Source: a virus
DNA length: 64,000 nt
Strand: one strand, 5' to 3'
Virus record (IMG/VR): IMGVR_UViG_3300045988_183163
The notes beneath the pieces are model-generated. The model was not told the DNA's origin. It did no database searches and saw only the letters and a program-made list of their open reading frames with translations. Within the stretch, counting starts at the first letter, position 1, and each line of letters begins with the position of its first letter. Below, piece by piece: positions 7,245 through 64,000 of this stretch. A program made the translations under genes and the position numbers.

Positions 7245-7334
7245 TTACCTCACATATGTATTGTTTTGTTTTTTTGTGAACCTCCCCACCTAAGCCTTAC
7301 GGCTATAGACGGGGCGTGCGCTCTTCATGGTTCA

Positions 7335-23603: not shown

Positions 23604-23831
23604 CGGAAAGCGTTAAATGGTAACAGTTTATACACATTCTTTTGCAATTGACATTCTCCCCCGCCTAAGCCCAACGGCTATAGACGGGGTACTCTGCCTT
23701 CAAATTTCATAGATGAATTAGTGGCAAATGAAGGGACTTTTGCTTCCTGGACAATTTTGTTGCTTTGCTGTATGATTAAAGTACAACAATTAGGGCAATA
23801 CAAAAATCGATAACGGCGAGGTACTAACAAG

Positions 23832-27488: not shown

Positions 27489-27869
27489 TCAGTTTCTTAT
27501 TTTTTGAGATGCAATGTATTCTTGTACTTGTTTGCGCGTGTTATCACTGACGGTTGCAATAAAGTAGCTTGGGTTCCAAAGATGCCCGCCCCAAAGTTGC
27601 TTCTTCAAGTCCGGATTGGCGATAAAAATAGCTCTTGCACTGTTGCCTTTAAGCACTTTTATCATATCCGGGATAAAATGCTGCGGTGAACACTCCACCA
27701 ACAGGTGAATATGGTCAGGCATGCATTCCATTTCTACAATATTGATTTTTATGGTTTCGGCGGTCTGCTGCAGAGACTCTTTTAGCGATTGTTCCGTTTC
27801 GTTTGTCAAAGCCTGATGCCTTACCGTCTGGCGAATCCTCGAATATACATTATGTATAATAGCATACAC
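27489..27869 (-). CDS. tnpA: IS200/IS605 family Y1 (HuH) transposase TnpA
   Basis: 126 aa; HuH motif MPDHIHLLVE; C-terminal region LKGNSARAIF...GHLWNPSYFIATV with the catalytic Tyr region. Confidence 0.7.
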   Translation of the reverse strand: MYAIIHNVYSRIRQTVRHQALTNETEQSLKESLQQTAETIKINIVEMECMPDHIHLLVECSPQHFIPDMIKVLKGNSARAIFIANPDLKKQLWGGHLWNPSYFIATVSDNTRKQVQEYIASQKIRN

Positions 27870-45261: not shown

Positions 45262-45266
45262 GTCAA

Positions 45267-45745: not shown

Positions 45746-45775
45746 CAGCTGCGCGGACAAAACCGCGCTTTTGAG

Positions 45776-47470: not shown

Positions 47471-47471
47471 G

Positions 47472-48284
47472 TTAAATTTCTCCTTTCAAGTTGTTATATC
47501 GTTTCATAGCCTCACGACTGATATCTTCATCCTGTTCAATATCCTGCGTCGTCTTGTTAATGACAGCATCGAGCTTTGACATTGCGAGCACAACCTCTGT
47601 ATCCCACGGATTCTGGGCAGAACGTTGGTTCAGAGCGTATGCTAAAGAATCCAATCGGAGGATTAAGCGCTCATTGTCATGAACTACCTTATCCACGGTA
47701 CTTACGATACCATTGTAGATTTCTTTCTTTTTCTGCGCTTCTTCTTTGTTTCCAAACGAGATAGAGCCTTGACAGAAAGCCTTGTATTCCGTTTCATCAA
47801 ACATTGAAGCCGAGCGAATCGCGTCATCCAGTCGGTCATAGAAGATACGTTCTGCGGATTCCAATAACGTTAGGCACTTGGTTTGTTCCCCGGATGTCTT
47901 GCTATCCTGGGTCATGCTGTAGGCAACGGCCATTTTTTGCCCGAAGCGCCGTACCTGATACAGCATTTGGTCAGCCTGCTCTGAGAAGACGCTTTTTGTC
48001 TTTACTGCCGTTTGAATTTTGTTGGTATACAGCTCTTCTTTGCTTGTAGGCCGTTCAGATGCAGCAGAAGCCGCAGCTTTCTGCTTTTTGAGAAAATTGC
48101 GATATGCAATGTAGGCGCAGAGCAGCAGGAACAGGACTGGCGTGCCATATTTCGCAAGGAGGATAAGGAACAGCGATGTTCCGTGCATGTATTCGATAGT
48201 GTAATAGGTGCTGATATAGGTTTCGACCATGTAGACTATAGCCGCTGCTATGATAATCAAACTCACGCCGAGCATTAACTTCAC
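47472..48284 (-). CDS. membrane protein (2 TM) with a cytoplasmic coiled-coil domain, XpaC/TelA-like
   Basis: Two N-terminal TM helices followed by a helical domain; the overall pattern resembles the XpaC/TelA toxic-anion-resistance families. This is a weak call. Confidence 0.35.
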   Translation of the reverse strand: MKLMLGVSLIIIAAAIVYMVETYISTYYTIEYMHGTSLFLILLAKYGTPVLFLLLCAYIAYRNFLKKQKAAASAASERPTSKEELYTNKIQTAVKTKSVFSEQADQMLYQVRRFGQKMAVAYSMTQDSKTSGEQTKCLTLLESAERIFYDRLDDAIRSASMFDETEYKAFCQGSISFGNKEEAQKKKEIYNGIVSTVDKVVHDNERLILRLDSLAYALNQRSAQNPWDTEVVLAMSKLDAVINKTTQDIEQDEDISREAMKRYNNLKGEI

Positions 48285-48345
48285 CTCTCCGGTTTTACTC
48301 TATTTGCTATCAAGAGGGCTTGATACGAAGTATCTTTTGCTTCTA

Positions 48346-48373
48346 ATTATCTTCGATTCGCACGATTCAGCAA
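48346..48373 (-). promoter_or_regulatory. conserved promoter family copy (TTGCTG-N16-GATAAT)
   Basis: Minus strand reads TTGCTGaatcGTGCGAATCGAAGATAAT. Confidence 0.45.
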
Positions 48374-48495
48374 CAAAGCCTTAACATGCAAAAAAGACAG
48401 TCACCCTAATTGGATGGCTACCATGAACTTTTCGTTTGCGTCACAACAGAAAAAAGGATGGCTCTTTCGAGTCACCCTCTTTTTATTCGTTGTCT

Positions 48496-50139
48496 TTAAT
48501 CTTTGGCCTTTTTGTCTTTCATGATAGCCTTCTCTTCTTCGGTCACATCCGGTCGAAAATGAGTGACTTCCTCACCGTTGAGACTCTTCTCATGAATTAG
48601 ATAGCCGCCTTCTACGCGTTCCATAGCATTGACACCTCCTTCCTTTTCACTATTCACAGGCTGTTCGCCTTGATTCATGATGTTGATGTTGCGGTCGGTC
48701 TTTGCCTGGATGCTGTTGGCACGGACAATTTCGCCCATGTCGATTCCGGTCGCTTCTTTCACCGTCTGCATGGTTTGAGCCATCAGGATAGGAACGTTCC
48801 CGGAAACGCCGGATACGCCGGAGGCGTCACCGCCAATGATAGAAACCTTATCAATGCTGGACAAAGGCTGAGCCACGCTTTTGGCAATGTCAGGAAGAAC
48901 CTTGATGAGCATTTCAGCCACAGCCGCATCGTTATACTGCTTATATGCCTCTGCTTTCTGTTTCATGGCTTCCGCTTCAGCCAAGCCTTTCTGACGAATC
49001 GCTTCAGCTTCTGCCTTACCGACAAGTTCAATGCCTTCTGCTTCCTGCTGCTTGGAGAACTTCTGTGCCTCAGCTGCACGTTCCGCCTCATATTTCTTGG
49101 CTTCTGCCTCTTTCTGGCGGCGGTACAGGTCAGCATCTGCCTGTTTGCGGACTTCCGCATCCAGTTTGCGTTGCTGGACCTCGGCTTCCTGTGCGGCAAG
49201 GTCTACCATTTTCTTCTGCTTGGCGATTTCAGCATCCGCTTCCGCTTCTTTGATTTCTTTGGCGCGGAGATTCATCTGAATCTGACCGGCAGCATCTGCG
49301 TCAGCCGCAGCTTTATCAGCTTCAGCTTTCAGCTTTGCCTTGGCGAGCTGCAATTCATTGTTGCGTTTTGCAATCGCAGTCTGCGCTTCAACTTCCTTGG
49401 CATTTGCAGCCATCTCAGCATCGGCCTTCGCGCAGGCTACATCACGGGCAGCCTGAGCACGGGCAATTTCAGCCTGTTTTTTCACAAGCTCTTCCTGTTC
49501 AATGCCGATAGCCTCAATGACGCCGTGGTTGTGGCCCTGAACATCCACCGCATCCCTGATATCCTGGACGTTAAAAGTCACGACCTCAAGTCCCATCTTA
49601 GCAAGGTCGGGGCGAGCATTCTCGATAACGCTCACAGCCATCTGCTTGCGGTTCGTCAGAATTTGGTCGACGGTCATGTCAGAGACAATCTCACGCAAAT
49701 TGCCCTGCAGAACGTCATTAACTTTCTCATTGATGCCCTGCTCGTTCATGCCCAGAAAGTTCGAGATGGCTGCCTGTTGGCGGGACATGATGTACGCCTT
49801 GGCGTCTTTCAGACCGGATGCCTTCACTTCTTCATCCAGAACGGTAGAGTTTTCGCTGTAGACTTGAATCGTGACAACAGAGTCAATCCAGAGACTTACG
49901 CCGTTCTTCGTCTTAACACCTGTTTCAGGAGTTTTGACGTCAATTTTCAGAAGGCGCATATTTAGCCGGTCAGCCCGCTGAAGAACGGGCAGAACAAATG
50001 TACCTTTTCCGCAAACTACTTTAGGCTTAGACAGACCAAAGCCGGTCACAACGATAGCCTCCGTGGGCGGAGCTTTCTTGTAGCAGAGAAATCCAAAGAG
50101 AATAATCAGGGCTGCCACAATCGCAATCACATATACCAT
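48496..50139 (-). CDS. flotillin-like SPFH/band-7 domain protein
   Basis: N-terminal TM helix, SPFH domain (VVTGFG...KIDVKTPE...), a long Ala/Glu-rich coiled coil, and a C-terminal flotillin-type region; 547 aa. Confidence 0.75.
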   Translation of the reverse strand: MVYVIAIVAALIILFGFLCYKKAPPTEAIVVTGFGLSKPKVVCGKGTFVLPVLQRADRLNMRLLKIDVKTPETGVKTKNGVSLWIDSVVTIQVYSENSTVLDEEVKASGLKDAKAYIMSRQQAAISNFLGMNEQGINEKVNDVLQGNLREIVSDMTVDQILTNRKQMAVSVIENARPDLAKMGLEVVTFNVQDIRDAVDVQGHNHGVIEAIGIEQEELVKKQAEIARAQAARDVACAKADAEMAANAKEVEAQTAIAKRNNELQLAKAKLKAEADKAAADADAAGQIQMNLRAKEIKEAEADAEIAKQKKMVDLAAQEAEVQQRKLDAEVRKQADADLYRRQKEAEAKKYEAERAAEAQKFSKQQEAEGIELVGKAEAEAIRQKGLAEAEAMKQKAEAYKQYNDAAVAEMLIKVLPDIAKSVAQPLSSIDKVSIIGGDASGVSGVSGNVPILMAQTMQTVKEATGIDMGEIVRANSIQAKTDRNINIMNQGEQPVNSEKEGGVNAMERVEGGYLIHEKSLNGEEVTHFRPDVTEEEKAIMKDKKAKD

Positions 50140-50403
50140 AATTTTTGTTTCTCCATTCGTAAAATAGTAATAAAACTATAAGTCAGGACTTGCGTCCTGT
50201 GGTCCACTTCGCCAATGTTATGCACTGTTTTAGCCTTTCGACATGACGCTCGCACTTCTCCTCCCCTCGGAGATGTTTAACGAAACGCCTGCAGAGCTCA
50301 CCACTTGTGGAGCATGGATAAGGTGCCTATATTATTAGTACACAACGTAGTTTTCCCCACTGCCGGAGCAATGGGCTTAGGCTAACCAACCGGGCTTACG
50401 GGT

Positions 50404-50458
50404 TGCCCCGCAAGCCCCGTCTATAACCGGCGAGCCGGTTTAGGCGGGGTTGTTGACA
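50404..50458. repeat. 55-bp inverted-repeat arm (partner at 63946..64000), including the last 6 codons of the lipoprotein gene and a GNRA-tetraloop hairpin
   Basis: 54/55 identity to the reverse complement of 63946..64000. It contains GGGCUUGCGGG-GCAA-CCCGUAAGCCC. Confidence 0.6.
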
Positions 50459-50784
50459 TCACTTGCTTTGTCGATTTCACGCATGAAAACCTCATTGCCG
50501 TTCTCATCGTACTTATGGACGGTAACAACGCCATCTTCATCATCAGCACTGTAGTGCATTGTCTCAGTGCTCAACAGCAGGTCCTCTGCAGCAGCTTCGT
50601 CTACATCAGTGACCTCAGAAGGCGCTTCCTCCGGCGTAGTCTCCTCAACCACAGAACTTTCAGCCGGGGCGGTAGAAGCTGCTTCGGAAGAGGAAGCGGC
50701 AGGCTTCTGAGTAGCGCATCCGGCAAGCATCAGGGCTGCAGCGGTTGCCACAGCAGCGGCAGCGGTCAGGTTTTTGTTTCTCAT
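50440..50784 (-). CDS. lipoprotein
   Basis: Start at MRNKNLTAAAAVATAAALMLAGC (lipobox) with RBS GAAGGAGAACG. Confidence 0.55.
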   Translation of the reverse strand: MRNKNLTAAAAVATAAALMLAGCATQKPAASSSEAASTAPAESSVVEETTPEEAPSEVTDVDEAAAEDLLLSTETMHYSADDEDGVVTVHKYDENGNEVFMREIDKASDVNNPA

Positions 50785-51116
50785 GTTCTTTCGTTCTCCT
50801 TCGTTTGGATAGTTTTTGCACAAATACTTCAATGTAGTATTTGTTGTACAACTACTATTGTACCGAGCTCGCATATTCCGGCAAGCAAACAACCATTACA
50901 AATTGGTAACCATTCGTGCAGCAGCTGACGATAACCGCCGGTTGTAGAAGCAGCGGACGGAACAGTGTATTACATTGACCCGACGTTCAACAGCGACGGG
51001 GACTACGAACGGTTCTTCTGGAAAGAAGAGCTGGAAGACCACAATATCGAAATCGACATTGTGCGCATCCGTGCTATGACGAACTGCTGCCGCAAGTTCA
51101 AGACGATGTAACTACA

Positions 51117-51147
51117 AGCCGTCTGCTTTCGGATGGGCGGCTTTTTT
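51117..51147 (+). terminator. intrinsic terminator following a short gene remnant
   Basis: GCCGTCTGCTTTCGGATGGGCGGC followed by TTTTTTT. Confidence 0.5.
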
Positions 51148-51157
51148 TGAAAAAATG

Positions 51158-51205
51158 TTTGACGAAACTTGCGAACAGCATACAATAAGTGTTGTACGAC
51201 AGATA
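51158..51205 (+). promoter_or_regulatory. conserved promoter family copy on the plus strand (TTGACG-N16-TACAAT), followed by TTGTACGACAGATAA
   Basis: TTGACGaaacTTGCGAACagcaTACAATaagtgTTGTACGACAGATAA; a terminator hairpin at 51244..51276 follows. Confidence 0.5.
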
Positions 51206-51243
51206 ATAAACCGACATCAACCATTCATAATCTGACAAATTCA

Positions 51244-51276
51244 GACAGGCACCAATCGGGTGACCTGTCTTTTTTG
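51244..51276 (+). terminator. leader terminator downstream of promoter 51158..51185
   Basis: GACAGGCACCAATCGGGTGACCTGTC followed by TTTTTTG; it precedes gene 51316..51666. Confidence 0.5.
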
Positions 51277-51315
51277 TTATGAGACCGCGTAATGCGGAGA
51301 AAGATGAGGATTACC

Positions 51316-51666
51316 ATGACCACTATTATGAACACCGCCGAATTCATCCGCGTTACCGACCTTCTGAAGAAGGAAAAGATTGCCAAGAGCAGCGGCAACA
51401 TATTTGCTGCTATGATGGCGATGCGCGAGAACCGCCCCGAAGCAATCTGCGCAGATGGCTTCAAGATGTCCATTCAGGCATCCGATGAGCACTACTGCCA
51501 GAAGACCGATGACGGGAGCTATGCGAGCGTAGAAATCGGGTTTCCGTCTTCGTCCGAGTCCCTGCTCGACGATTATGGTGATGACGGAGTGTACGGCTAT
51601 GTGCCGCTCACTGTTGTCGATGCCATCATCGCCAAGCACGGTGGAATCCTGCTCGATGAGCAGTAA
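51316..51666 (+). CDS. hypothetical protein
   Basis: Start at MTTIMNTAEF (RBS GAGGA); 116 aa. Confidence 0.4.
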   Translation: MTTIMNTAEFIRVTDLLKKEKIAKSSGNIFAAMMAMRENRPEAICADGFKMSIQASDEHYCQKTDDGSYASVEIGFPSSSESLLDDYGDDGVYGYVPLTVVDAIIAKHGGILLDEQ

Positions 51667-51815
51667 GCCACTCTATCCAATTCCAGCATGACATCCGGCT
51701 GCACGCCGTTTGTTCATATATGAAGCAGTTATCATTCCTCTTAATGAGAACAAAAATGATAGCTGCTATTTTTATTTTACAAGCCTCGAAAATACGAGGA
51801 GAAAGAGAGTTTGTT

Positions 51816-52988
51816 ATGAAAACCGCTATGAACACCAACATCAACACTAACATCAACACCAACACTACCAATTCCAAGAAAGTTATCCCCGGCATCAATG
51901 ACGTGGCTACCAAATGCCCTATGGCTGCTACCATGTGGAGTGACAAGAACACCTTCTCTCCCAGTAAAGTGGCTGCGGGAAGCAGAAGAAAGTTCACATT
52001 TGTTTGCCCAGACTGTGGGCAGGAATTTGAAAGCAAAATCTTTAGTGTTGTTCGTTCGGTAATGAACGGTAACACTGGTTGCCCTGTTTGTGCAGGTAAA
52101 AAGATTGTTTCCGGCATCAACGATTTGGCTACCAAATGCCCGAAAGCAGCCGCCATGTGGAGCAACAAGAATGCTTGCTCTCCCAGCGAAGCACCTGCAG
52201 GCAGCCACAAAAAGGCCGTCTTTGTATGTCCTGATTGCGGACAAGAGTTTGAGTCTTCCATTTGCAATGTCGTCAACTCTTTGATGCATTACCGCACCGG
52301 TTGTCCCGTTTGTCGTGGTTTGAAAGTGGTTTCCGGAATCAACGACTTGGCTACTAAGTGCCCTGCAGCAGCCAACATGTGGGGCAGCAAAAACGCTTGC
52401 TCTCCAAATGAGGTATCTGCAGGCAACAACAAAATGGCATGGTTTGTCTGTCCCGACTGCAAACAGGAGTTTAAGGCTCCCGTTTGCAATGTCGTCAATT
52501 CTTTGTTGCATGACAATACCGGTTGCCCTGTTTGTGCAGGTCGCAAGGCTGTTTCCGGCGTCAACGATTTGGCGACCATGTATCCAAAAGCCGCTGCTAT
52601 GTGGAGCGGCAAGAACGATTACGCCCCAAGCGAAATTCCTGCTCGTTCGTCCAGACGCGCCATTTTTGTGTGCCCCGATTGCAAACAAGAGTTTGTGACA
52701 AGCATCCACAACATGACGCGGGCTATTGCGTCCGGTGTTACTTGCTGCCCCAATTGCAGACTGCGGGGGCGTGCCATCAACGCAGCTCGCAAGGACGAGT
52801 ACGGTTCTCCGAAATCTGTCGGCACTACGATGACGATGAAGGATGGCAGCAAAGCCACCTGCACCGCTTATCATGGTGTCAACAACATCACGGTGGAGTT
52901 TGAAGACGGGTTCGTTTTGTACCATGCTCGCTGGAACCAATTTGTCCGTGGTGCTCTTCACCACGGTCAGAAAACCACTGAAGAATAA
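51816..52988 (+). CDS. zinc-ribbon tandem-repeat protein (four about 75-aa repeats GINDLATKCP...W..KN...FVCPDCGQEF...GCPVC)
   Basis: Start at MKTAMNTNIN (RBS GAGGAGAAAGAGAG). Four repeats, each with CxxC...CxxC. The antisense 420-aa ORF is rejected. Confidence 0.6.
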   Translation: MKTAMNTNINTNINTNTTNSKKVIPGINDVATKCPMAATMWSDKNTFSPSKVAAGSRRKFTFVCPDCGQEFESKIFSVVRSVMNGNTGCPVCAGKKIVSGINDLATKCPKAAAMWSNKNACSPSEAPAGSHKKAVFVCPDCGQEFESSICNVVNSLMHYRTGCPVCRGLKVVSGINDLATKCPAAANMWGSKNACSPNEVSAGNNKMAWFVCPDCKQEFKAPVCNVVNSLLHDNTGCPVCAGRKAVSGVNDLATMYPKAAAMWSGKNDYAPSEIPARSSRRAIFVCPDCKQEFVTSIHNMTRAIASGVTCCPNCRLRGRAINAARKDEYGSPKSVGTTMTMKDGSKATCTAYHGVNNITVEFEDGFVLYHARWNQFVRGALHHGQKTTEE

Positions 52989-53112
52989 TAAAAAAAGCCA
53001 TCTAATACGAAGTTGGCTTATAAATGTAGCAGCTATCATCTTCCTGCAAGGGGGGATGGTGGCTGCTTTTTATTGCAAGCCTCGAATGTTACGAGGAGAA
53101 AAGAGGATAATT

Positions 53113-54672
53113 ATGAATACTTTTGTGAAGGTTATGCATGCCAACACCTGCAATTGCGCTGCTTGCGCATCTGTTCCGACTCTTGGCATTAAGATGCCGT
53201 ATGAGGAAGAGGAAAAGAAAGCTACTAAAACTAGAAAGACTCGCCAAAAACTGATTGTTGGAGAAAACGATTTGGCTACGGTCGCTCCTGAAATCGCCGC
53301 AATGCTGAGTGAGAAAGATAAGCACTTTGCTTTTGAAGTTACTGCTGGAAGCAACAGGAAACTTACTTTTGTCTGCCCTGTCTGCAAGAAAGAGTTTGAG
53401 GCTAAAATTTGCAGTGTCACAATAGCAGTTTGCCCATGTCCTTATTGCCGCAAAGTAAAAAAAGCGCGTCGCAATTCGAAACCTATTGTTGGAGTTAATG
53501 ATTTGGCTTCGCAATGCCCGCAGGCTGTAGCAATGTGGAGCGAAAAGAATAAATGCTACCCAACAGAAGTTTTCGCCCAAAGCACTAAGACTGCAATTTT
53601 CAATTGCCCAAAATGTAAGCACGAATTTGAGACGACTGTCACATCCTTTGTGAAAAGCATCAAAAAATCGAAAGGCAATACTACTGGCTGCCCTATCTGT
53701 AATGGGACTAAAGTTGTTGTTGGCTACAATGATTTAGCTACGACCTGCCCCCAAGTAGCTGCTATGTTAAGCAAAAAAAACGCTGGCTTTGCAACAAAGT
53801 ACACTATGGGAAGCAATGCAGTTGCAAGTTTTACTTGTCCTGATTGCAAAAAAGAATTTGAGGCTAAAATTTGCAAAGTCACAAATGTAGTTTACCCATG
53901 TCCTTATTGCCGCGATACAAAAATTCTCGCTAATCATATGGATTTGGAAACTTACTTAAAGAAAAATAATCGAGAGGATATTCTTAACTGTATTCGTCCA
54001 GATAGTCCGTATCAGGCAAGTGAAGTTTCTTATTCCAGCAACAAAACATTATTTCTTAATTGCCCTGAATGTGGTAATAAATGGGTGATTTCAGCTAATT
54101 ATCTGACTGCACAAGGCATTAGTTATATGTGTGGTAATTGTAATCAAACGACAAATTTTATTTCCAAGCCAGAGCAGTATGCTGTTCGTATTGCAATGGG
54201 TTTTGCAAGGGAAAACGGAGTTCCAAATGCATTCGATGAAGTTCGTCACATTTTTGGCTATAACAACAAATATGGTGTAGATTTTGTCGATAACACTCGC
54301 AAGATTTGCATGGAGTACAATGGTGTATATTGGCATAAAGACAAAAAAAGAGTTGATTGCTATAAATTCATCAAAATCCATAATGCCGGATATACTTTTA
54401 TTCGTATACTGGAACCGGGCTTAAAAGCTTTTGACAAAAAATATGACATTGTATTGCCAAAAAACTACAAACACGGTAACGAGTATGAATCAAAAATCAT
54501 GGAGGACCTTGGCTATAAGCTTATTTCTTTATTTGAGGAAATCTATAATTACAAGGCCACTCCTGAAATTCAAAAATTAGTCGATTTTAAAGAATTCGAA
54601 AAGTGGTACGATATTCATCGCAAAAGAATTTCTGCAAAAGCTACCGAAAACGCAGCAAAGAAAGCTGCCTGA
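53113..54672 (+). CDS. zinc-ribbon tandem-repeat protein with a C-terminal DUF559/Vsr-like endonuclease-type domain
   Basis: Start at MNTFVKV, with the same leader as the upstream gene. It has zinc-ribbon repeats and a C-terminal GVDFVD...CMEYNGVYWHKD...D motif reminiscent of DUF559 PD-(D/E)xK nucleases. Confidence 0.55.
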   Translation: MNTFVKVMHANTCNCAACASVPTLGIKMPYEEEEKKATKTRKTRQKLIVGENDLATVAPEIAAMLSEKDKHFAFEVTAGSNRKLTFVCPVCKKEFEAKICSVTIAVCPCPYCRKVKKARRNSKPIVGVNDLASQCPQAVAMWSEKNKCYPTEVFAQSTKTAIFNCPKCKHEFETTVTSFVKSIKKSKGNTTGCPICNGTKVVVGYNDLATTCPQVAAMLSKKNAGFATKYTMGSNAVASFTCPDCKKEFEAKICKVTNVVYPCPYCRDTKILANHMDLETYLKKNNREDILNCIRPDSPYQASEVSYSSNKTLFLNCPECGNKWVISANYLTAQGISYMCGNCNQTTNFISKPEQYAVRIAMGFARENGVPNAFDEVRHIFGYNNKYGVDFVDNTRKICMEYNGVYWHKDKKRVDCYKFIKIHNAGYTFIRILEPGLKAFDKKYDIVLPKNYKHGNEYESKIMEDLGYKLISLFEEIYNYKATPEIQKLVDFKEFEKWYDIHRKRISAKATENAAKKAA

Positions 54673-54728
54673 TAGATTACAAGACCTCTGACGAACTCAG
54701 TCGTCTTTTTACATAGATAGCGTTTCCT

Positions 54729-54766
54729 GCCGTTCACCCATAACCGGGTGGGCGGCTTTTTCTTTT
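54729..54766 (+). terminator. intrinsic terminator after the zinc-ribbon genes
   Basis: GCCGTTCACCCATAACCGGGTGGGCGGC followed by TTTTTC. Confidence 0.5.
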
Positions 54767-55000
54767 GCCAACTACTTGCCATACGTCAATTTCATGCATG
54801 AATTACAAAATAGTAACCGTTCCATACAACCGCTGGCGATAACTACCAGTTGTAGTGTATTTGATTGGACTTCCAAATTCTATTTTAGTCGCACATATTG
54901 CAACTTACGGTTGTATTTGCTATACTAATAACAACCGATAACAACCAACGAAGCACAAATAACAACTAATAGGTGTTACCGCGAACCGAGGAGGCCAATC

Positions 55001-56302
55001 ATGGCGAGCGAACGAGCGATACTTCACTGTGACATGAACTCTTTTTACGCAAGCTGCGAGGCGGCTTATAACCCAAAGCTGCAGGGTAAGCCGATTGCAG
55101 TATGTGGTGACCCGGAAAGGCGAAACGGCATTGTGTTGACTGCCTCGTATCCGGCCAAACGGATGGGCGTGAAAACCGGGATGGCACTCTGGGAAGCGCA
55201 GCAGCATTGCCGTGACATCATCTTTGTTCCGGCTCATTATGACCTATATACCAGGTACAGTGGGTATACCAGAGAGATATTCCTCAGATACTCTGACATG
55301 GTCGAACCGTTTGGCTTGGATGAAGCATGGCTCGATTGTACCGCAAGCCGGTCTCTCTTTGGAAGCGGGGAAGAGATAGCCAAGAAAGTATCTGATACCG
55401 TGAAGAATGAACTGGGCATTACCTGTTCCATCGGAGTGAGCTGGAATAAAGTCTTTGCCAAGTTGGGGTCTGATTACAAGAAGCCAGATGCCACCACCGT
55501 TATATCAAGGTCAAACTGGAAAGATATTGTGTTCCCGCTGCCTGCCACGGACCTTCTGTATGTTGGGTCCAGAACGGGGAAAAAGTTATCAAGCTACTGT
55601 ATCCATACAATCGGTGATTTGGCGACCGCCAATCCAAACTTTCTGAAAGAAAAATTCGGGAAAATCGGCCCGATGCTTTGGGGATTCGCCAATGGCCTTG
55701 ACACGGGAGCAGTGGCGAAATACGAGGGAAGGAAAGCTCAGGTACCTATCAAGAGCATCGGAAACAGCTGGACAACGCCACGGGACTTGAAGACTAACCG
55801 GGATGTCTGGATTGTTATTTATCTGCTCGCGGAAAGTGTCGCTGCGCGGCTCAGAGAGAACCATTTCCGATGCCGAGGCGTAGAGGTGAGTCTCCGGGAT
55901 TCCAGCCTTTTCTCTTTTGAGAGACAGTGCAAGCTCGGCCAGCCAACGATGCAGGAAAAGGATATTGCGGAGGCAGCTTACCAGCTGTATAAGAAGAACT
56001 ACCGGTGGAGTGAGCACCTACGCTCAGTTGGCGTGCGTGCCATTGACCTGCGGCCAGATACGGAACCAAACCAGATATCTTTTGAGTACAGCGCCGAAAA
56101 GCAGGAAGAGACCGAGCGGCTTGAATCCGCGATTGACGGGATACGGAACCGGTTCGGATACTATTCCGTACAACGAGCCGTCATGTACAAAGACCGGTTT
56201 CTCTCTCATTGTGACGCCAAGGGAGACCACACCATACACCCACACGGGTATTTGCAGGGAAGCACAGGGGAGCATCTAATCTATGTCAGAACCAAGAATT
56301 AA
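55001..56302 (+). CDS. Y-family DNA polymerase (DinB/UmuC-like)
   Basis: ILHCDMNSFYASCE and the catalytic DE region; 433 aa; RBS GAGGAGG. Confidence 0.8.
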   Translation: MASERAILHCDMNSFYASCEAAYNPKLQGKPIAVCGDPERRNGIVLTASYPAKRMGVKTGMALWEAQQHCRDIIFVPAHYDLYTRYSGYTREIFLRYSDMVEPFGLDEAWLDCTASRSLFGSGEEIAKKVSDTVKNELGITCSIGVSWNKVFAKLGSDYKKPDATTVISRSNWKDIVFPLPATDLLYVGSRTGKKLSSYCIHTIGDLATANPNFLKEKFGKIGPMLWGFANGLDTGAVAKYEGRKAQVPIKSIGNSWTTPRDLKTNRDVWIVIYLLAESVAARLRENHFRCRGVEVSLRDSSLFSFERQCKLGQPTMQEKDIAEAAYQLYKKNYRWSEHLRSVGVRAIDLRPDTEPNQISFEYSAEKQEETERLESAIDGIRNRFGYYSVQRAVMYKDRFLSHCDAKGDHTIHPHGYLQGSTGEHLIYVRTKN

Positions 56303-56555
56303 GAAATATGTCGAGGTCATTGCCGATTTCTCTCCTGAAGGCATATTAACGCCTCAGACAGTCATCTGGGACACGGGCCAGAGATTCGATATCACCTGCA
56401 TCTCGGAAGTGTTGCCCCGGAAATACTCGAAAACTGGCGGAGTAGGAGTTCGCTATACCTGCCAGATAGGAAGAGCCAAAACATATCTGTTCTTTGAGGA
56501 GGACAGGTGGTTCGTGGAAGCAAAGGAAAATGCTGCAGCCGGAGACCCCTGCTAA
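56283..56555 (+). CDS. small protein downstream of the Y-family polymerase (YolD-like position)
   Basis: 90 aa; overlaps the polymerase stop. Gene order resembles the uvrX-yolD / yqjW-yqzH pairs of Bacillus prophages. Confidence 0.35.
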   Translation: MSEPRIKKYVEVIADFSPEGILTPQTVIWDTGQRFDITCISEVLPRKYSKTGGVGVRYTCQIGRAKTYLFFEEDRWFVEAKENAAAGDPC

Positions 56556-56959
56556 AAATCGAAGAAATAATCGCCCGTCAAGACTCCACCAACTTCCATG
56601 GTCGAGTTTGGGTCGGGCTTGCAACCAGATTTGCAGCAGAATGACTCCATTTCGGGCGTCAACACAGATTGGATAATAATGCGGTGTACGCCGTTTTCTT
56701 CGCAGATTTTCTTTAAGGCAAAAAGTATCGCTGTCATCGTACCACAACGTTTGTGAGCAAACTCAACGCGAGAAAGAACCAATGCAAAATTTCCAAGGAA
56801 AGCAACACGCAGCTCATTTTCCCCGTCGCTAGAAGTAATCCAAATAGTACGCATACTGTTGGAAACACTGCAATGACAGTCTTGCTTGCTCTCGATAGTA
56901 TCTACAAGTTGTTGTATTTGCTCTTTCGTAAGCTCAAGCATACCTAAAGCCTCCATCAT
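56552..56959 (-). CDS. hypothetical protein (possibly GNAT-like; start uncertain)
   Basis: The ORF-track version begins with TTG. The ATG pair at 56959 is preceded by TATAAT 16 nt upstream with no SD, so it may be near-leaderless. Confidence 0.3.
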   Translation of the reverse strand: MMEALGMLELTKEQIQQLVDTIESKQDCHCSVSNSMRTIWITSSDGENELRVAFLGNFALVLSRVEFAHKRCGTMTAILFALKKICEENGVHRIIIQSVLTPEMESFCCKSGCKPDPNSTMEVGGVLTGDYFFDF

Positions 56960-57036
56960 TTTTTGGTTGTAAAAATTATACCACAAACAGTGTCAAGCAG
57001 ACGAAGTGATTTTGCAACGAAAGGAGAAGAAACAAG

Positions 57037-57567
57037 GTGAATAGCAAATACCGAGAGCAAACCTGCTGCTTTGTTGGGCACAAGGATATCCCACCGGGCG
57101 AGCAGCTCAAAATATTGGCCAGGGTGGAACACCGGCTTATTCCACTTATCCAGCAGGGAGTCACTTACTTTGGTATCGGCGGTTCTTTAGGTTTTGATAC
57201 TCTTATGGCGGATATGCTGGTTTCGTTGAAAGCAGCACATCCCCGAATTCGCGTTATTGAGGTTTTGCCTTTTGAGGGATACCGTTCTAAATGGAGCTTA
57301 GAACAGCAGCGGCATGCCGAGAAAATAGACAAGCAGGTAGACAAAATAGTATATGCTGCGAAAGAACCAGGCAGGGGAGTATACCTTCTAAGAGACCGAC
57401 ATCTAGTCGATTACTCTGCTTATTGTATCTCCTATTGCACAAGGACTACCGGCGGCACGGCATATACGGTGAAATACGCTCTGGAACACGGCATAACGGT
57501 GTACAACGCCTCCAGTTTCGATGTGAGCGCCTTGCTTCAGGCCCGACCGCTTGCGAAGAACGGATGA
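57037..57567 (+). CDS. DUF1273 / SLOG-superfamily protein (YoqJ-like)
   Basis: 176 aa; N-terminus CCFVGHKDIP... and a Rossmann-like pattern typical of SLOG proteins. Confidence 0.45.
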   Translation: MNSKYREQTCCFVGHKDIPPGEQLKILARVEHRLIPLIQQGVTYFGIGGSLGFDTLMADMLVSLKAAHPRIRVIEVLPFEGYRSKWSLEQQRHAEKIDKQVDKIVYAAKEPGRGVYLLRDRHLVDYSAYCISYCTRTTGGTAYTVKYALEHGITVYNASSFDVSALLQARPLAKNG

Positions 57568-58517
57568 AAAAGCGCCCTTGCACAAAACATGAGGGAGATT
57601 TCCGGGCGTTTGGAGAAATACCCATAGGACTTTGAGCTTTGCTGCACAAAAACAAGCCTCCGCTCTTTGGCGGGGGCTCTTCTTGTATTCTCAAAAACGT
57701 TGAATTTAATTTCACTGAATTCCGATTCAGCATTATTTGGCGTGGCTCAGCTTGGCCCGACAGCACGATACCATGGCGGCCGAACACAATGATTCTCCAG
57801 AACGGAATTCTCGACATTCGGTGCGAATCGTATATAATCTAAATAATAAAACAGTATAGGAATATAGCTAAGCCGCCAAGCGAGTGAAATCGTTTGGTGG
57901 CTTTTCTTTTTGCTACGGAAAAGTAGACATTGTACTTGTCATGAGCTTGTTGCATACTTGCTACGAACTTGCTAAAAACTTGCTAAGCACTTGCTACGCT
58001 TCACCTCGAAGCAAGTTCATTTTTTTTGCGCGAAAGAATATCGGATAAGTGACGCTTCTTACTCGTATGACCGAGAGAAAACATGCAAAGACTCTACCAT
58101 TCTGGTAGGGCTTTTTTGCTGCCCAAAAAGTTGGAAAAATGTCGCAAGCGAGCCGCTGAAACCTCGGAATTTTGTCGCAGCCTTTCCGAATATGAGATGT
58201 ATCTCACAAAAGCGAAATGCGCTGCTTCGTATCTGTGGTGAGACAATCGGAACAGGCAAATAGCAAAATCTCAGCTGCCGCAAATGCTGTCAAGTTCAAA
58301 TCACAACTCCCAAAAGTTTCGTTTGGGAAAGCCTGCATTAAAAGTTTCGTTCTGGAAAATGCAGAGGGGAAAGGAAAATGTCGAAGCATATATGCACTGA
58401 TTTTCTTCTTGCTATTTGTGCAATCCGCTCAAATTGGCGATAAATATTCCCAAAATAAATAAGTCAAAGTGCTTTTGGTGTATAATGGCTCTGACAAACA
58501 GAAAAAAGGAGAACACT

Positions 58518-59600
58518 ATGAAAAAGGTTGTATCATTAGCACTTTCGACTTTGCTCGTCCTCTCGTTGGCTGCCTGCGGCAAGGCGAATAGTTCCGCTGC
58601 AACAGCCGCAAGTGAATCCAAGTCAAGTGCTTCGTCAAATAGCACTTCCAATAGCACGCAAGATTACAGCCCTGACGGGATTAAAGTAGGAGAGACATAT
58701 ACTACAGAAGACGGCAAAACATATGAAAGGGTGTGGAACGGCACAGGCAGCGATTTACCTACGCCGTCCCCCGAACCCAAAATTACATACGATAATGATT
58801 TCCAGGCACAGACACTTGTTGATAATGAAGAATGCACCATTATCTTGCAGAGCGTAGGCTACGATGATGATTACGGCTATTATTGGAAGCTTTACTTCAA
58901 GAATAAGACATCAGATAAAAAACTCGGTTACTCGTTTGGCGACTGCACATTGAATGGCGTAGGTGCGAGCCTTTGGCTTACGAGTGTTGAACCTGGTCAA
59001 GAGGAAACGGAGATTCATCATTGGGAAAGTTCCGGGCTTAAAATTTATAACATCAATCCGCAGGATATCAATACGGTAAGTTTTTATCTCGATGTCTATA
59101 ACGAATTAGATTATGATGTTATCCCACGGCATGACTTTGTTGATGACGATTTCGTGGTTTATCCAAAAGGGGAAGAAAACGCAACCGAGCCAAAGCATGA
59201 AACCCAACCCACAGACCTCGTACTGGCCGACAATGACGCTTGCACTCTGATGATTTGTGGATTTGACCCCGATGGCCTGCACGGTTATACGACCAAAGCT
59301 TACATAGAAAACAAGACGGATAAAGAAATCATGTTTGCCTTTAGAAGCGGAGGCTCTATAAACGGTTTTGAGTGCTTCCCTGAAACAGATACAATGGGAA
59401 TTGATGCGCACACTAATGCCTATGTAGACATCTACTATTACGATTATTTAGATACTTATGAGGCCAACGGTAAAGACCCCACCTCTGTCACCGAAATGGT
59501 GATGCCAATCGTTATAAACAATTCCAGCACTCGGGACATCTATGTAGATGAGACTTTCACTATTAACCCTCAGACAAATTCCGTGACAACATCGGAATAA
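58518..59600 (+). CDS. lipoprotein with an internally duplicated about 140-aa domain
   Basis: Start at MKKVVSLALSTLLVLSLAAC (RBS AAAGGAG). Two homologous domains: ...DNEECTIILQSVGYDDD... and ...DNDACTLMICGFDPDG... Confidence 0.6.
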   Translation: MKKVVSLALSTLLVLSLAACGKANSSAATAASESKSSASSNSTSNSTQDYSPDGIKVGETYTTEDGKTYERVWNGTGSDLPTPSPEPKITYDNDFQAQTLVDNEECTIILQSVGYDDDYGYYWKLYFKNKTSDKKLGYSFGDCTLNGVGASLWLTSVEPGQEETEIHHWESSGLKIYNINPQDINTVSFYLDVYNELDYDVIPRHDFVDDDFVVYPKGEENATEPKHETQPTDLVLADNDACTLMICGFDPDGLHGYTTKAYIENKTDKEIMFAFRSGGSINGFECFPETDTMGIDAHTNAYVDIYYYDYLDTYEANGKDPTSVTEMVMPIVINNSSTRDIYVDETFTINPQTNSVTTSE

Positions 59601-59689
59601 TTTGACGCCCTCCTGCGATTAAAATTATTAACTTTCCCGGGCTTCGTTTGCAACTTTGTAAATAAAGGTTTCGTTCTGGAAAACACGGT

Positions 59690-59740
59690 GGAAAATTGAC
59701 ACCTCCCACGATTGAAATCGTGGGATTCCTGGGCGGCGCG
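59690..59740. repeat. solo IS200/IS605-type hairpin (RE-like remnant)
   Basis: ATTGACACCTCCCACGATTGAAATCGTGGGATTCCTGG is nearly identical to the TnpB-element RE at 34287..34322. Confidence 0.5.
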
Positions 59741-59814
59741 GCAAGGTTCATCGCCAAATCGTGTCTGAAACAGCGAGTTATGCGGTTTCCCATCATACGC
59801 TACGGGTGTAGCGC

Positions 59815-60282
59815 ATGACGAGCATCCAGCCAAAATATCCGAAAGGTGAAGAGAAAGCGACAAAACCAAAACACGAGATTCAGCCCACGGATATTGTGCT
59901 GTTCGACAATAATGCCTGCAGCATGGTCGTTTGCGGATTTTATTCTGATAGTTTCATGGGCTATACGGCAAAAGCCTACTACGAAAACAAAACCAACGAC
60001 CGTATCGATGTCATTCTGGACAAAGGCTCTATCAATGGTTTTGAGTGTACCCCGGAAGGGACAACGCTGCTGGAACCACATTCTAACGCCTATATTGATA
60101 TTCGTTGGCAGGAATATGCCGAAACCTACGCAGAAAATGGCAATGACCCAACATCCATCACAAAAATTGTAATGCCAGTTTTTGTGAGAAAAGACACAGG
60201 GAGCAATACGGTATACATTGACGCCACTTATTCCATTGACCCGCAGGCAAGAACTGCAACGCCGATAGTGAACCCCCAATGA
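59815..60282 (+). pseudogene. 5'-truncated paralog of the lipoprotein domain (single domain, no signal peptide)
   Basis: 155 aa, homologous to residues about 255-394 of the 58518..59600 product. An IS-type hairpin lies immediately upstream. Confidence 0.4.
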
Positions 60283-60451
60283 TAGTCGCATGATTTTCCG
60301 AAACCAAAAACTACTGGAAAAGCAGCAAAATTTTTCTGAGTTCAGAAAACTTTTGGTACTTTGGGGAAAAGTTTTCTGGAATGGGAAAACTCTCCGACTT
60401 TTTGGAATAAAAAAATAAAAGCGCTCACCATTTTTCGGTGGGCGCTTTTCT

Positions 60452-61981
60452 TCATTCTTCGGTTTTCTTTTTCAGCCACTGCCTTCTAACGAACGGCGTT
60501 ACATAGGTTTCATCACTCTTCAGCTCATAGCCATAGCTTTCAGCTATCAGGATGGCACGTTCGCTTGCTTTCTGTCCGGCAGGCAGGTGGCGAATGAAAC
60601 CATTGATGTTTTTGGACGAAGCATCATATTTGGACTTGTCGAACACCCGCAGCGGCTCGTCGTCATCATTGCCTTTCTTGCGATAATCGCGGGGCTTTCC
60701 GCCAATCATCAGACAACGAATCCCGAATGGAGTATCCGCGTGTGTCACAAACGAAGACCGGAACGACGCATCAGTGGGCAGGACATCCGGCAAATCACAG
60801 GCGAGAGAAGTGTACAGCCAGAGAATCAGATTCGTGACGCTGTCAACCAGCTCTGGAAATTGAGCCCGGTCAGTCAAAATATAAAACCACTCGGTGCTTG
60901 TGTTATAGTATCCGGCCAGGTCACCAAACTTGGTTACGATTTTATACAGACACACAATCTCGTTGTCGCGGCAAGTCTCTTTCAGCTTAATTTCCTGTAT
61001 CAGCTGGCAGGCATCAAACTGAAACAATGCACCGTTGGCGGGAAGAGTTCTGCGGCGATGGTGCAGCGTATCTTTCAGAAACTCTGTCGTATATTTGGGT
61101 GAGATGGGCTTTGGCCACCAGGACCACATGTTCGGAGTATTCTCAATCAGCGGCTTGTCCGGCAGCATGTCCACGGTATACTCGTTCACATAGGTAGCCA
61201 TCGAAAGGACTGTGTTCGTATACAAATGTGAGAGCAAAGCAAGGTTGTTGATGCTGTCGAAGTCGGCAACGCCCTCATAACCATAACGCTTATAGTACGA
61301 AAAGACCATATCCAAGCGTCTGTCTTCAGAAATCTGAGATTCACATTTGTCGTATGGCCGATTGTTGAAAAGAGCATCACTATAATAGACAGGAACATCG
61401 GCGAGGGGATAGGGGTCCCGGATGATGATTGGCTCGTTCTCAGTTGAGATACCGACAATGTTGTTCACAATATCGAATTCCTGAGGCTTGAGGTATTCGC
61501 TCCCCTGCATCAGCATATCGATTACCGCGTACAGGACAGAATCATTACGTTCCACATTTCCGTCAATGGATAATCCTGAATGAACACATTCCTGCACATA
61601 AGCAATGGTCTTAAAGTACAGAGCATAGTCCTTATTCTTCTTGATGGGCTTTGTGAGCTCCTGCATGAGCCGATGATATCCCTTGATGAATTTGTCAGAG
61701 TTCGCCATAGCAAGCTCTATCTGAGAGTTAATGGCCTCAATGATAGGCTTACATTCCTCGGCTTCACGAGCCAAGTGAAAAAGGAAAGTGGACGCTTTCC
61801 CGAAATCTGCATCATGCAGCGTCGCCACGACCTGGCAAGCACTGGACAGGGTTCTTCTCTGAAATACCCAGATAGACTCGCCTTTGCTCCGATACTTCTT
61901 ATCCCATACCGGTGCGTATTTATCGACTAAGGCATTACCGAAATCTTCCTGCACTGCCAAAACACCATTTTCGTTCTGCAC
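60452..61981 (-). CDS. large hypothetical protein
   Basis: 509 aa; lies 10 nt downstream of the HD-domain gene on the same strand. Confidence 0.5.
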   Translation of the reverse strand: MQNENGVLAVQEDFGNALVDKYAPVWDKKYRSKGESIWVFQRRTLSSACQVVATLHDADFGKASTFLFHLAREAEECKPIIEAINSQIELAMANSDKFIKGYHRLMQELTKPIKKNKDYALYFKTIAYVQECVHSGLSIDGNVERNDSVLYAVIDMLMQGSEYLKPQEFDIVNNIVGISTENEPIIIRDPYPLADVPVYYSDALFNNRPYDKCESQISEDRRLDMVFSYYKRYGYEGVADFDSINNLALLSHLYTNTVLSMATYVNEYTVDMLPDKPLIENTPNMWSWWPKPISPKYTTEFLKDTLHHRRRTLPANGALFQFDACQLIQEIKLKETCRDNEIVCLYKIVTKFGDLAGYYNTSTEWFYILTDRAQFPELVDSVTNLILWLYTSLACDLPDVLPTDASFRSSFVTHADTPFGIRCLMIGGKPRDYRKKGNDDDEPLRVFDKSKYDASSKNINGFIRHLPAGQKASERAILIAESYGYELKSDETYVTPFVRRQWLKKKTEE

Positions 61982-61991
61982 GGTATCCTCC

Positions 61992-63389
61992 TTACAACTT
62001 TAACTGCCCCACACAACTCTGCGCAGTGGGCAGTAGTTTGTGGGCCATCTCGTTGCGGAAATACTTAGGGTCTACGGCTCGCATCCCGAACCGCACACGG
62101 TCTAAAGCATCTGCGTCTTTCAGAATCGTATACAGCAGCCACACCCGTTCTTTGTCCCGGATATTGGATGCTTTGAGGTCTGCAAGAGCTTTGCGGTCGT
62201 CTAAGCAATGATATTTGATGAGGAAAGCAGTTGCCGAATTGCAGTCGGAGTCTGCGTCATAATAAATGTCCCTGGACTTTGCTCCGTGACTGTCATCGAC
62301 ATCATCATTCGTCCGCCCAATATCATGATAAAGAATCGCATCACATAGCTGGTGGGATTCTTTTTTTGTTAAGGCAATGCCCTGAACCTGGACAAGGAGC
62401 AGAGCATCAAAGAGAACCCGCAGCGTGTGCTCGGCATTGTGCTCCTCGTCATCAATCCGGCCATAATCATCGTACAGTGCGGAGATACGGCTCCGGTAGC
62501 GCTGGTAGAGAGGGTAGAACGCCTGAATTTCATCTGTCAGAGCGTTAATGCCGTATAGTGTATCGACCTTTCTATCTTTTACAGCAGCCGGTGGGACAAG
62601 GACCTCTTTTTCTTCATCATTCGGAAAATACTCGATGATGTCACATTTGCTGACATGGGCAGTGATGATTCTGCTGTTCTCGAGACTCGGGATGCGGCAG
62701 GCAAAGAAACAGGCTGCCTTGTAGCTTGTGGTCCAGGAGAAAGATTTCTCGTATGGAGTTGACTTACTCCCTTCCCCACGATAGATGGTCACAATATCCG
62801 GCAGGCTGGATAGCTTCTTTTCAGTGTCCTGCTTTTGCTTCTGAGACTTTCCAGAAAAGACTTTCTGAAGGTTATCCTCTTTGAGAGCCGAGAACCCAAA
62901 ATCACTGGTACGATAGAAGTCCAGAAAAAGTGCGTATAGATTCTCACCCGGACTGGACAACTCAATGTACCTGGAAAGAACAGACACACGAAGGCTGTTT
63001 TCCAGGGAAAAGAGGTAGCTGCGAATGAAGGGGGCGTTTCCCGATGAGATTTTCTCGGCCATATCCAGAACTCTCTGCTGAAACTTTTCGTCCGATTCGC
63101 CGTTCACAGCCAGACGCTTGTCCCCGTAAATGTTCAGAGAAAGAACAATGGGAACGGTCGTGCTATCGAGCTCGCAATAATAAAGAGGAGCAAGCATATT
63201 GTGCGCAGCATAAATCTTGTCGACGGGGAGTCTCGGATACTTTTTAGCGAATTCAGTGGCCGTTATACCGATGCTGTAGCCTTCTTTGTAGTACCGTTCA
63301 ATGTCAGCACTTGTCTGCACTGCAGTGAGGGGTAGCATCGTCTCGAGACTTGCTTGGTTGATGCTTACAAGAATATCCCCGACCGTCAT
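61992..63389 (-). CDS. protein with a C-terminal HD phosphohydrolase-like domain
   Basis: H..H motif NAEHTLRVLF, HD motif ILYHDIGR, and a distal D in DADALDRV; the N-terminal 330 aa are uncharacterised. Confidence 0.5.
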   Translation of the reverse strand: MTVGDILVSINQASLETMLPLTAVQTSADIERYYKEGYSIGITATEFAKKYPRLPVDKIYAAHNMLAPLYYCELDSTTVPIVLSLNIYGDKRLAVNGESDEKFQQRVLDMAEKISSGNAPFIRSYLFSLENSLRVSVLSRYIELSSPGENLYALFLDFYRTSDFGFSALKEDNLQKVFSGKSQKQKQDTEKKLSSLPDIVTIYRGEGSKSTPYEKSFSWTTSYKAACFFACRIPSLENSRIITAHVSKCDIIEYFPNDEEKEVLVPPAAVKDRKVDTLYGINALTDEIQAFYPLYQRYRSRISALYDDYGRIDDEEHNAEHTLRVLFDALLLVQVQGIALTKKESHQLCDAILYHDIGRTNDDVDDSHGAKSRDIYYDADSDCNSATAFLIKYHCLDDRKALADLKASNIRDKERVWLLYTILKDADALDRVRFGMRAVDPKYFRNEMAHKLLPTAQSCVGQLKL

Positions 63390-63846
63390 TGTTTTTCTCC
63401 TCCCACAATTCTTTCTAACATAATTATATCATATTTTACAGATGGACGGGCCAAAATCGCAACTTTGTTCATGAATACTTAAACTTTATGCACGAGATTT
63501 ATTGTTGCCCTAATATATAAAACTAGAACCCCGTCATCTTGGATGGGGCTCTTGAGTTGTAACTGGAGGTGTATCTCATTTTGTGCCAGGGGTATTGTAT
63601 GGTAGTTTTCGAAAATGAGTGCAAAAAAACAAACACCAGAAGTCGAACTCAAAAATATCTTAGTCTTGGCAAGTTTACCCTTGCGCCGCTGTGCGAACTT
63701 CGTACAATAAGAATTGTACAAGAGAAACGGCAAGAGACATTTGTAGTGATTGTAGTTGGTCGCCACGAATCGATGCCGTGTCTGCTTGCGCATAATTACC
63801 TCTTTTCGAAGCCCACAGGTCATTCTCTCACCTGTGGGTTTTGTTT

Positions 63847-63874
63847 ATTGCGGAATCGTGCGAATTGCAGACAA
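63847..63874 (+). promoter_or_regulatory. conserved promoter family copy on the plus strand (TTGCGG-N16-GACAAT)
   Basis: TTGCGGaatcGTGCGAATTGCAGACAAT. Confidence 0.45.
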
Positions 63875-63945
63875 TTAAAGACAGAGCGATTGTGAGATGG
63901 GGCGATACCGATGCAGTAGGAATGAGAATCTTAGCAGCTAAAAGA

Positions 63946-64000
63946 GTCAACAACCCCGCCTAAACCGGTTCGCCGGTTATAGACGGGGCTTGCGGGGCAA
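63946..64000. repeat. 55-bp inverted-repeat arm (partner at 50404..50458); runs to the window edge
   Basis: GTCAACAACCCCGCCTAAACCGGTTCGCCGGTTATAGACGGGGCTTGCGGGGCAA. On the plus strand it would encode ...VNNPA-stop. Confidence 0.6.

Follow-up and report, generated by a model that had tools for sequence, protein, structure and literature searches.

What has placed two nearly identical 55-nucleotide sequences, in opposite orientation, at the two ends of a 13.5-kb block of accessory genes in a viral genome? The question arises from a stretch of 64,000 nucleotides (nt), here called the window, taken from IMG/VR virus record IMGVR_UViG_3300045988_183163. The arms of this inverted repeat, 50403–50457 and 63946–64000, match at 54 of 55 bases (98% complementary) across an interval of 13,488 nt, and the chance expectation for such a pair in 64 kb is about 3e-22. 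The near-perfect repeat with its single mismatch, first reported in a preliminary description of this DNA, is thus real; its left arm had been placed one base off. We find that each arm is the beginning of an IscB omega-RNA gene (HEARO, RF02033), the guide RNA of an IS200/IS605-family transposon. We further consider it very likely that recombination between the inverted omega-RNA copies has turned the 13.5-kb block of this genome round, against the orientation seen in most of its relatives (probability about 0.85, one figure for the identity of the arms, the two insertions and the inversion by homologous recombination taken together).

50403..50457, minus strand: left arm of the repeat, consisting of omega-RNA scaffold nt 1–55.
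63946..64000, plus strand: right arm, the first 55 nt of a second omega-RNA copy that runs off the window edge.
50458..63945, no strand assigned: the inverted 13.5-kb block, a variable accessory region with DUF4379 zinc-ribbon proteins, a Y-family polymerase, YpsA, lipoproteins, and proteins of 509 and 465 amino acids (aa) without assigned function.

The covariance model of HEARO (RF02033) matches the minus strand at 50197–50457 over model positions 1–211, with 84.8 bits against a gathering score of 83. Because model position 1 falls at base 50457, the left arm is the first 55 nt of the omega-RNA; the right arm, at 55 nt, is too short for scoring by a covariance model. Each arm comprises an end hairpin, CCCCGCCTAA...TATAGACGGGG, and a GNRA-capped stem. 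Both of these hairpins had been described before; their place in the Rfam HEARO model is its first multi-stem junction. The 5′ structure predicted by RNAalifold disagrees with the Rfam consensus and was left out of this description of the arm. The core motif TATAGACGGGG occurs four times in the window (at 7304, 23679, 50415 on the minus strand, and 63978), compared with 0.29 occurrences expected. The right arm stops at the window edge, and the suspicion that the repeat is longer than the window shows is borne out by related contigs, in which the arm homology spans about 290 nt (window 50168–50457).

Across 54 distinct junctions, with 45 or more different flanks, GTCAAC is the exact start of the conserved scaffold and the bases upstream of it are unrelated, which points to the architecture of a flank-derived guide followed by a scaffold. 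Among eight copies, 15 predicted pairs are altered on both sides, and some of these compensatory changes distinguish the two copies of the repeat from each other. Judging from their sequences, both omega-RNAs may be transcribed and act as guides.

The two copies differ in what surrounds them, and each can be compared with a site that lacks it. The features at the left end of the block are:

50440..50784, minus strand: N-terminal half of an RHS/YD-repeat lipoprotein gene, whose last five codons and stop (VNNPA-stop) are transposon-derived.
50458..50473, minus strand: segment at the guide position of the left copy, CGACAAAGCAAGTGAT, made up of the 16 nt of the split lipoprotein gene that directly precede the insertion point; a putative guide.
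50157..50457, minus strand: omega-RNA-only copy (H1), 301 nt, identified by the HEARO match and with both boundaries fixed by an empty site.
50152..50156, minus strand: ATGGA, which matches the transposon-adjacent motif (TAM) and abuts the 3′ boundary of the omega-RNA-only copy.
48496..50139, minus strand: Band_7/flotillin gene (Pfam Band_7, E-value 6e-22, and Flot; the source records name it flotillin).

Looking up the lipoprotein open reading frame (ORF) 50440–50784 returned ten contigs, each with the same RNA followed by a 465-aa protein with RRXRR and HNH domains, and the order lipoprotein half, omega-RNA, IscB (RRXRR, HNH) is present in 20 related contigs. The 465-aa IscB of this partner element (PF14239 and PF01844) lies outside the window and matches OgeuIscB and other solved IscB chains with E-values of about 1e-33. 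When the lipoprotein half is fused in silico with the "122-aa gene" that follows IscB, it matches uninterrupted proteins of 218–231 aa in which ...KASD runs directly into MD... At the nucleotide level the empty site (contig L128) reads ...GCAAGTGAT joined to ATGGAC, and the occupied site (L009) reads ...GCAAGTGAT, then GTCAAC...(about 1845 nt)...CACAAATTTG, then ATGGAC. The element has therefore been inserted cleanly 5′ of ATGGA, precisely and with no target duplication. The comparison of L128 with the occupied site places the element inside the lipoprotein gene and makes VNNPA-stop a part of the element. The preliminary description had taken both arms for the ends of genes. That holds for the left arm, which closes the N-terminal half of a real lipoprotein gene, and fails for the right, where the ORF has merely 13 codons (MRILAAKRVNNPA and a stop, 63922–63963). 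For annotation, tails such as "VNNPA-stop" can be transposon-encoded, and what looks like a "122-aa gene" behind IscB is the remaining half of the disrupted lipoprotein gene.

The left copy has neither an IscB gene nor a second transposon end. It stands in the leader of the flotillin operon, between a promoter-bearing flank and the flotillin ribosome-binding site. An IscB gene downstream of it was considered and rejected, since the gene at that position is flotillin. On the promoter side, L113 and eight IMG/VR relatives carry an empty site in which ...CTGAAT is joined to (A/G)TGGAGAAA..ATG of flotillin, with (A/G)TGGAG at the junction and no RNA between. These empty sites show the left copy to be a 301-nt insertion at 50157–50457 that ends exactly at ATGGA. 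The homology between the two RNA copies ends 22 nt before the IscB start codon. Two independent omega-RNA-only copies, that of the window (at 50157) and that of L064, share one internal end point, ...T(T/A)ACGAA, immediately ahead of the IscB ribosome-binding site; the deletion in L064 runs about 200 nt past the element by way of a TAAC(C)GAA microhomology. Three candidate origins were considered for the exact 3′ boundary of the window's remnant: cutting by TnpA at an internal pseudo-site, a deletion through microhomology, and faulty repair of a cut made by IscB.

At the right end of the block the corresponding segment is:

63930..63945, plus strand: guide-position segment of the right copy, CTTAGCAGCTAAAAGA.

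The empty-site sequence, ...AAAAAACTGAAT, is not the same as this segment, which is therefore probably a degenerate guide. Among related genomes, the promoter-side flank beside the RNA reads ...AAAAGA in most, ...AAAAAACTGAAT in the empty sites and in L027, and ...AAAAGATTGAAT in L142; with ...AAAAGA in most genomes, the guide-position segment no longer fits the empty site. Beyond base 64000 the right copy probably continues into the remainder of its omega-RNA and the 465-aa IscB gene. In contig L140 the flank of the right arm leads through omega-RNA into IscB, and the partner copy of the common arrangement also precedes IscB. The continuation would be expected to carry T58, A67 and A72 of the scaffold, the IscB-linked 3′ part, IscB, a hairpin CACCGCCTAAG..TATAGACGGTG, ATGGAC and the C-terminal half of the lipoprotein gene.

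The full element can be followed to its far side in the related contigs. Downstream of IscB lies a second end hairpin, C(A/C)CC(G/A)CCTAAG..TATAGA..G.G, followed by about 17–20 conserved bases and then by an invariant ATGAA or ATGGA (40 distinct flanks), after which the flanks diverge. For GstIscB the reported adjacent motif is TTCAT, which lies against the left end, the right end being that on the omega-RNA side (Meers et al., 10.1101/2023.03.14.532601). ATGAA is the reverse complement of this TTCAT, and ATGGA that of TCCAT. The adjacent ATGAA or ATGGA is often the start codon of a downstream gene (L009, L044, L069, L079 and other loci), and the IscB family seems to insert often directly before genes or in frame at internal Met codons. 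The short sequences at 7273..7310 and 23655..23695, reported as relatives of the arms, turn out to match the opposite, TAM-side end hairpin of the same transposon family: on the plus strand, 7284..7314 matches this hairpin as a solo fragment, and 23659..23689 matches it together with flanking bases. At the spot that corresponds to window 7270–7335, upstream of ligA, L043 has a 118-nt truncated 5′ fragment of omega-RNA in the opposite orientation where the window has its solo end hairpin; similar fragments of 118–128 nt are found in L041, L044 and L068. Omega-RNA variants of 274 and 326 nt occupy one site in different strains with nearly identical IscB, and such mosaic RNAs suggest frequent exchange among copies.

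The orientation of the block was determined by comparison with related human-gut contigs. The 465-aa gene without assigned function at the right end of the block (61992–63389) adjoins the flotillin gene in L001–L003, L005 and L006. In a blastn comparison with L002, window 41014–50457 is colinear and 51992–64000 is reverse-complemented, and the two alignments overlap by exactly the 55-nt arm. Apart from the flip, window and L002 differ over 21.4 kb by only four single-nucleotide polymorphisms (SNPs), at 50386, 50391, 50400 and 50434 (scaffold nt 72, 67, 58 and 24). Contig k141_193657 holds both copies in the common orientation; they differ at those four positions, are identical over the next 95 nt, and then fall to about 80% identity. 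The left copy of the window joins the lipoprotein flank and 5′ SNPs of the IscB-linked copy to the 3′ part of the flotillin-linked copy, and the right arm has at nt 24 a T, the base that belongs with the promoter flank. This is the SNP pattern that would be expected of a reciprocal crossover within scaffold nt 73–167.

The window is not alone in its arrangement. L131/L140 (ERZ27271692, k141, 22 kb) has the window orientation with a crossover at about nt 263–290, the order in L140 being promoter flank, flotillin-linked type of RNA as far as ...GGACCACAGG, terminal hairpin of the IscB-linked type, IscB, and C-terminal half of the lipoprotein gene. L152 (IMG/VR 3300029220_000234, 68 kb) also has the window orientation, being colinear with 53363–45499; here the lipoprotein flank is joined to RNA entirely of the flotillin-linked type, which puts the crossover within nt 1–23. 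The three contigs with the window orientation have different backgrounds, and their crossovers fall in three different intervals. A deduplicated census counted about 39 contigs in the common orientation and three, the window and two independent contigs, in that of the window. The earlier proposal of an invertible segment is thereby upheld, the block being found in both orientations in public assemblies with its breakpoints inside the repeats. The common orientation is ancestral, because in the empty sites the promoter stands with flotillin and the two lipoprotein halves stand together. In the window, GC and AT skews at 52–60 kb are opposite to those of the flanks, which agrees with a recent flip; gene direction alone could also produce this.

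The recombinase or invertase that the preliminary description proposed to look for was not found: Pfam scans of the block ORFs detected neither a serine nor a tyrosine recombinase in the block or next to it. Since the crossovers are scattered and do not fall at a fixed site, we favour homologous recombination by general or phage-encoded machinery between the inverted copies, perhaps followed by gene conversion. We propose the following history. In an ancestor, a full element of about 1.85 kb (omega-RNA, 465-aa IscB, second end hairpin) inserted into the lipoprotein gene just 5′ of ATGGA, and a related element inserted between the promoter and the flotillin gene, also 5′ of ATGGA. The latter lost IscB and its second end at a later time, leaving the 301-nt omega-RNA-only remnant. 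The ancestral layout, that of most relatives, was promoter, remnant and flotillin on one side, and lipoprotein half, omega-RNA and IscB on the other. With the copies inverted and facing outwards, and sharing about 290 nt that include the 95-nt identical core, homologous recombination inverts the accessory block. The window carries the flipped layout, with its crossover in the 95-nt core (scaffold nt 73–167).

Could the window's orientation be an artefact, the assembler having taken the wrong path through the 95-nt identical stretch of a genome that is truly in the common orientation? We regard this as unlikely, although several observations fit it. Window and L002 differ over 21.4 kb by the flip and the four accompanying SNPs only, the crossover falls exactly in the longest identical run, whose 95 nt are shorter than a read and longer than many k-mer sizes, and the window arrangement is rare (3 of about 42 contigs). 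A real recombinant would carry the identical SNP pattern, however, and the same orientation recurs in two genetically different contigs whose crossover stretches are far too short to confuse a k=141 graph. Besides a path swap across the exact repeat, which could account for the window's flip, four further points count against an inversion as we propose it. In each contig of the window orientation only one junction of the two is seen; of the crossover intervals, two (at most about 23 nt, and about 24–30 nt) are short by the measure of RecA-type recombination; a single older inversion followed by gene conversion would give the same pattern; and the loss of IscB and the second end from the remnant exactly up to ATGGA is left without explanation. 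More generally, where short-read assemblies contain blocks of this kind, the orientation of the blocks should be checked at the level of reads.

The outward promoter-like sites at the two ends of the block raise the question of a programmed switch, in which an enzyme devoted to the task, be it an invertase, the Y1 transposase TnpA or IscB, flips the block and swaps promoters and guides between IscB and the flotillin operon. The features concerned are:

50857..50884, minus strand: promoter-like site of the lipoprotein gene, TTGCCG-16-TACAAT, a consensus match only, which in this orientation would read through into the left omega-RNA copy.
63848..63875, plus strand: promoter-like motif TTGCGG..GTGCGAA..GACAAT, pointing into the right omega-RNA copy; a putative promoter.
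27489..27869, minus strand: IS200-type Y1 transposase (TnpA; Pfam Y1_Tnp, E-value 3e-32), a candidate trans mobiliser of IscB/TnpB elements.

Given these sites, a flip would change the promoter that reads into the flotillin operon and the guide segment that is linked to IscB. The genome encodes TnpA and several RNA-guided nucleases (the Y1 transposase, a TnpB at 34399–35508 and two IscB genes), and one crossover lies within 23 nt of a transposon end. We nevertheless hold an enzyme-driven switch to be very unlikely: the block and its surroundings lack a serine or tyrosine recombinase, the crossovers occupy three different intervals, one orientation is strongly dominant, and one of the two copies is absent from many relatives. 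TnpA works on single strands, joining ends that lie on one and the same strand, which counts against an inversion driven by it, and it was set aside as the inverting enzyme because the crossovers are spread along the repeat. A related idea is that the omega-RNA-only copy is a maintained RNA, serving as a trans guide for IscB or as a leader of the flotillin operon, with the inversion acting as a guide or promoter switch. This would be an invertible switch made of guide-RNA genes instead of recombinase sites; we consider it a long shot. There is next to no chance, finally, that the arms are a duplicated intrinsic terminator serving both strands, or that they bound a composite transposon in which the 13.5 kb travels in one piece; both ideas had been suggested. 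The arms are indeed G+C-rich hairpins directly after a stop codon, but neither is followed by a U-tract, a terminator scan finds no terminator at either, and the left arm belongs to a 261-nt structured-RNA match, its copy scoring as a full-length HEARO omega-RNA. Transposon-related sequences do lie on both sides of the block, yet the left copy lacks the nuclease gene and the second end, the contents of the block vary between strains while its flanks are fixed, and each insertion site has its own separate empty site.

An inversion by homologous recombination between transposon-derived copies is of an ordinary kind, here unusually well documented, and the locus is a new example of known phenomena. 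It resembles the inversions between insertion sequences or ribosomal RNA operons in that inverted copies bracket a segment, both orientations are natural, crossovers vary and no dedicated recombinase is involved; it differs from them in the very short homology (about 290 nt, with the 95-nt identical core) and in that a guide-RNA gene takes the place of a transposase gene. With the Mu G/Gin, P1 C/Cin and R64 shufflon/Rci systems it shares an invertible block in a mobile genome and inverted repeats that overlap the 3′ ends of genes. Unlike those segments it has no invertase gene, much longer repeats, no fixed crossover site and no alternative gene tails. A remnant of the guide-RNA gene of an IscB transposon is homology enough for the inversion of a 13.5-kb accessory block in a very common human-gut replicon.

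The elements themselves are similar to the IscB–omega-RNA elements of the IS200/IS605 family (OMEGA; ISGst, 10.1101/2023.03.14.532601), with the RNA upstream of iscB and a variable, flank-derived 5′ guide, subterminal hairpins at both ends, an orientation that follows the upstream gene, a candidate TnpA in trans, and precise duplication-free insertion by a 5-nt motif (here ATGAA/ATGGA). In contrast to ISGst elements, the window copy is without IscB and has one end only, and the host is an uncultivated human-gut replicon of about 265–295 kb that IMG/VR lists as viral. In lacking a protein gene the left copy is like stand-alone omega-RNAs and like palindrome-associated transposable elements (PATEs), protein-less derivatives of IS200/IS605; related contigs L069 and L079 hold mini-elements with both ends and with IscB deleted. 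Unlike PATEs, the window remnant keeps only the omega-RNA-side end and should be immobile, yet it ends exactly at ATGGA. The comparison also delimits a compact family of 465-aa IscB proteins, with omega-RNAs of about 270–330 nt, both ends, natural guides and ATGAA/ATGGA motifs, which may be of use in mining for RNA-guided nucleases.

The related contigs come from human-gut metagenomes; several cluster at 265–295 kb, IMG/VR lists relatives as viral genomes, and the flotillin protein is recorded on 293 contigs. Megablast of 40000–64000 against phage and plasmid collections gave zero matches, as did a 34-nt arm pattern in species-representative genomes and an exact 42-nt arm pattern in IMG/VR, where the replicon was reached later via the flotillin protein. 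The content of the block varies widely by strain and includes restriction-modification genes, HipA, PIN/PhdYeFM and TnpB insertions. Of the cargo listed in the preliminary description, the DUF4379 zinc-ribbon proteins, Y-family polymerase and lipoproteins are present, and YpsA can be added; the pair of HD-domain genes is reduced to one sub-threshold HD match (E-value 0.005) in the 465-aa protein of the block. The two DUF4379 zinc-ribbon genes contain tandem and dispersed repeats at 51876–52738 and 53367–53923 (222 nt; 95–155 nt; families D1, D2 and D10), and the lengths of these genes vary between strains from 252 to 519 aa. The trpB non-coding RNA motif has a sub-threshold match at 60339–60457 (plus strand; 37.9 bits against a threshold of 59, E-value 0.12), just downstream of where the 509-aa gene (60452–61981, minus strand) has its 3′ end; the match is probably due to chance.

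A promoter-like motif, TTGC..-(G)TGCGAA-..-(T/G)A.AAT on the coding strand, recurs upstream of many genes in the window (4839–4881, 8669–8718, 11383–11418, 14541–14590, 19214–19263, 20942–20991, 35542–35584, 40464–40506, 43612–43654, 44822–44864, 50835–50884 and 63848–63875). The conservation of GTGCGAA between the hexamers suggests that a sigma factor or regulator is devoted to this motif.

A second, more distant HEARO is found at 12879–13119 (minus strand), upstream of a 420-aa IscB gene (11540–12802). It opens with a hairpin of another kind, CCCACGACTAAAGTCG(C/T)GGG, which occurs at 13089–13111, 20522–20544, 25997–26027, 34294–34324, 35644–35674 and 59701–59731 and flanks the TnpB element (about 34288–35691) at both ends; these hairpins probably mark the ends of another IS200/IS605 family. 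The copies at 20522, 25997 and 59701 are solo, and the last of these, which lies in the block, falls where several contigs have rearrangement breakpoints (59696 and 59836). The TnpA gene (27489–27869, minus strand) lies among transfer RNA (tRNA) genes, and related contigs carry a different TnpA beside a 578-aa protein with a weak OrfB_IS605 match. Four matches to HDV-like ribozymes (RF02682; HDV, hepatitis delta virus) were found on the minus strand, at 29863–29930, 31439–31510, 31659–31739 and 45680–45749, two of them above the gathering score. Three of the four lie within a cluster of about 20 tRNA genes at 24–32 kb, and the HDV-like matches of the window resemble the theta ribozymes described beside tRNAs in gut phages (PMC10879173).

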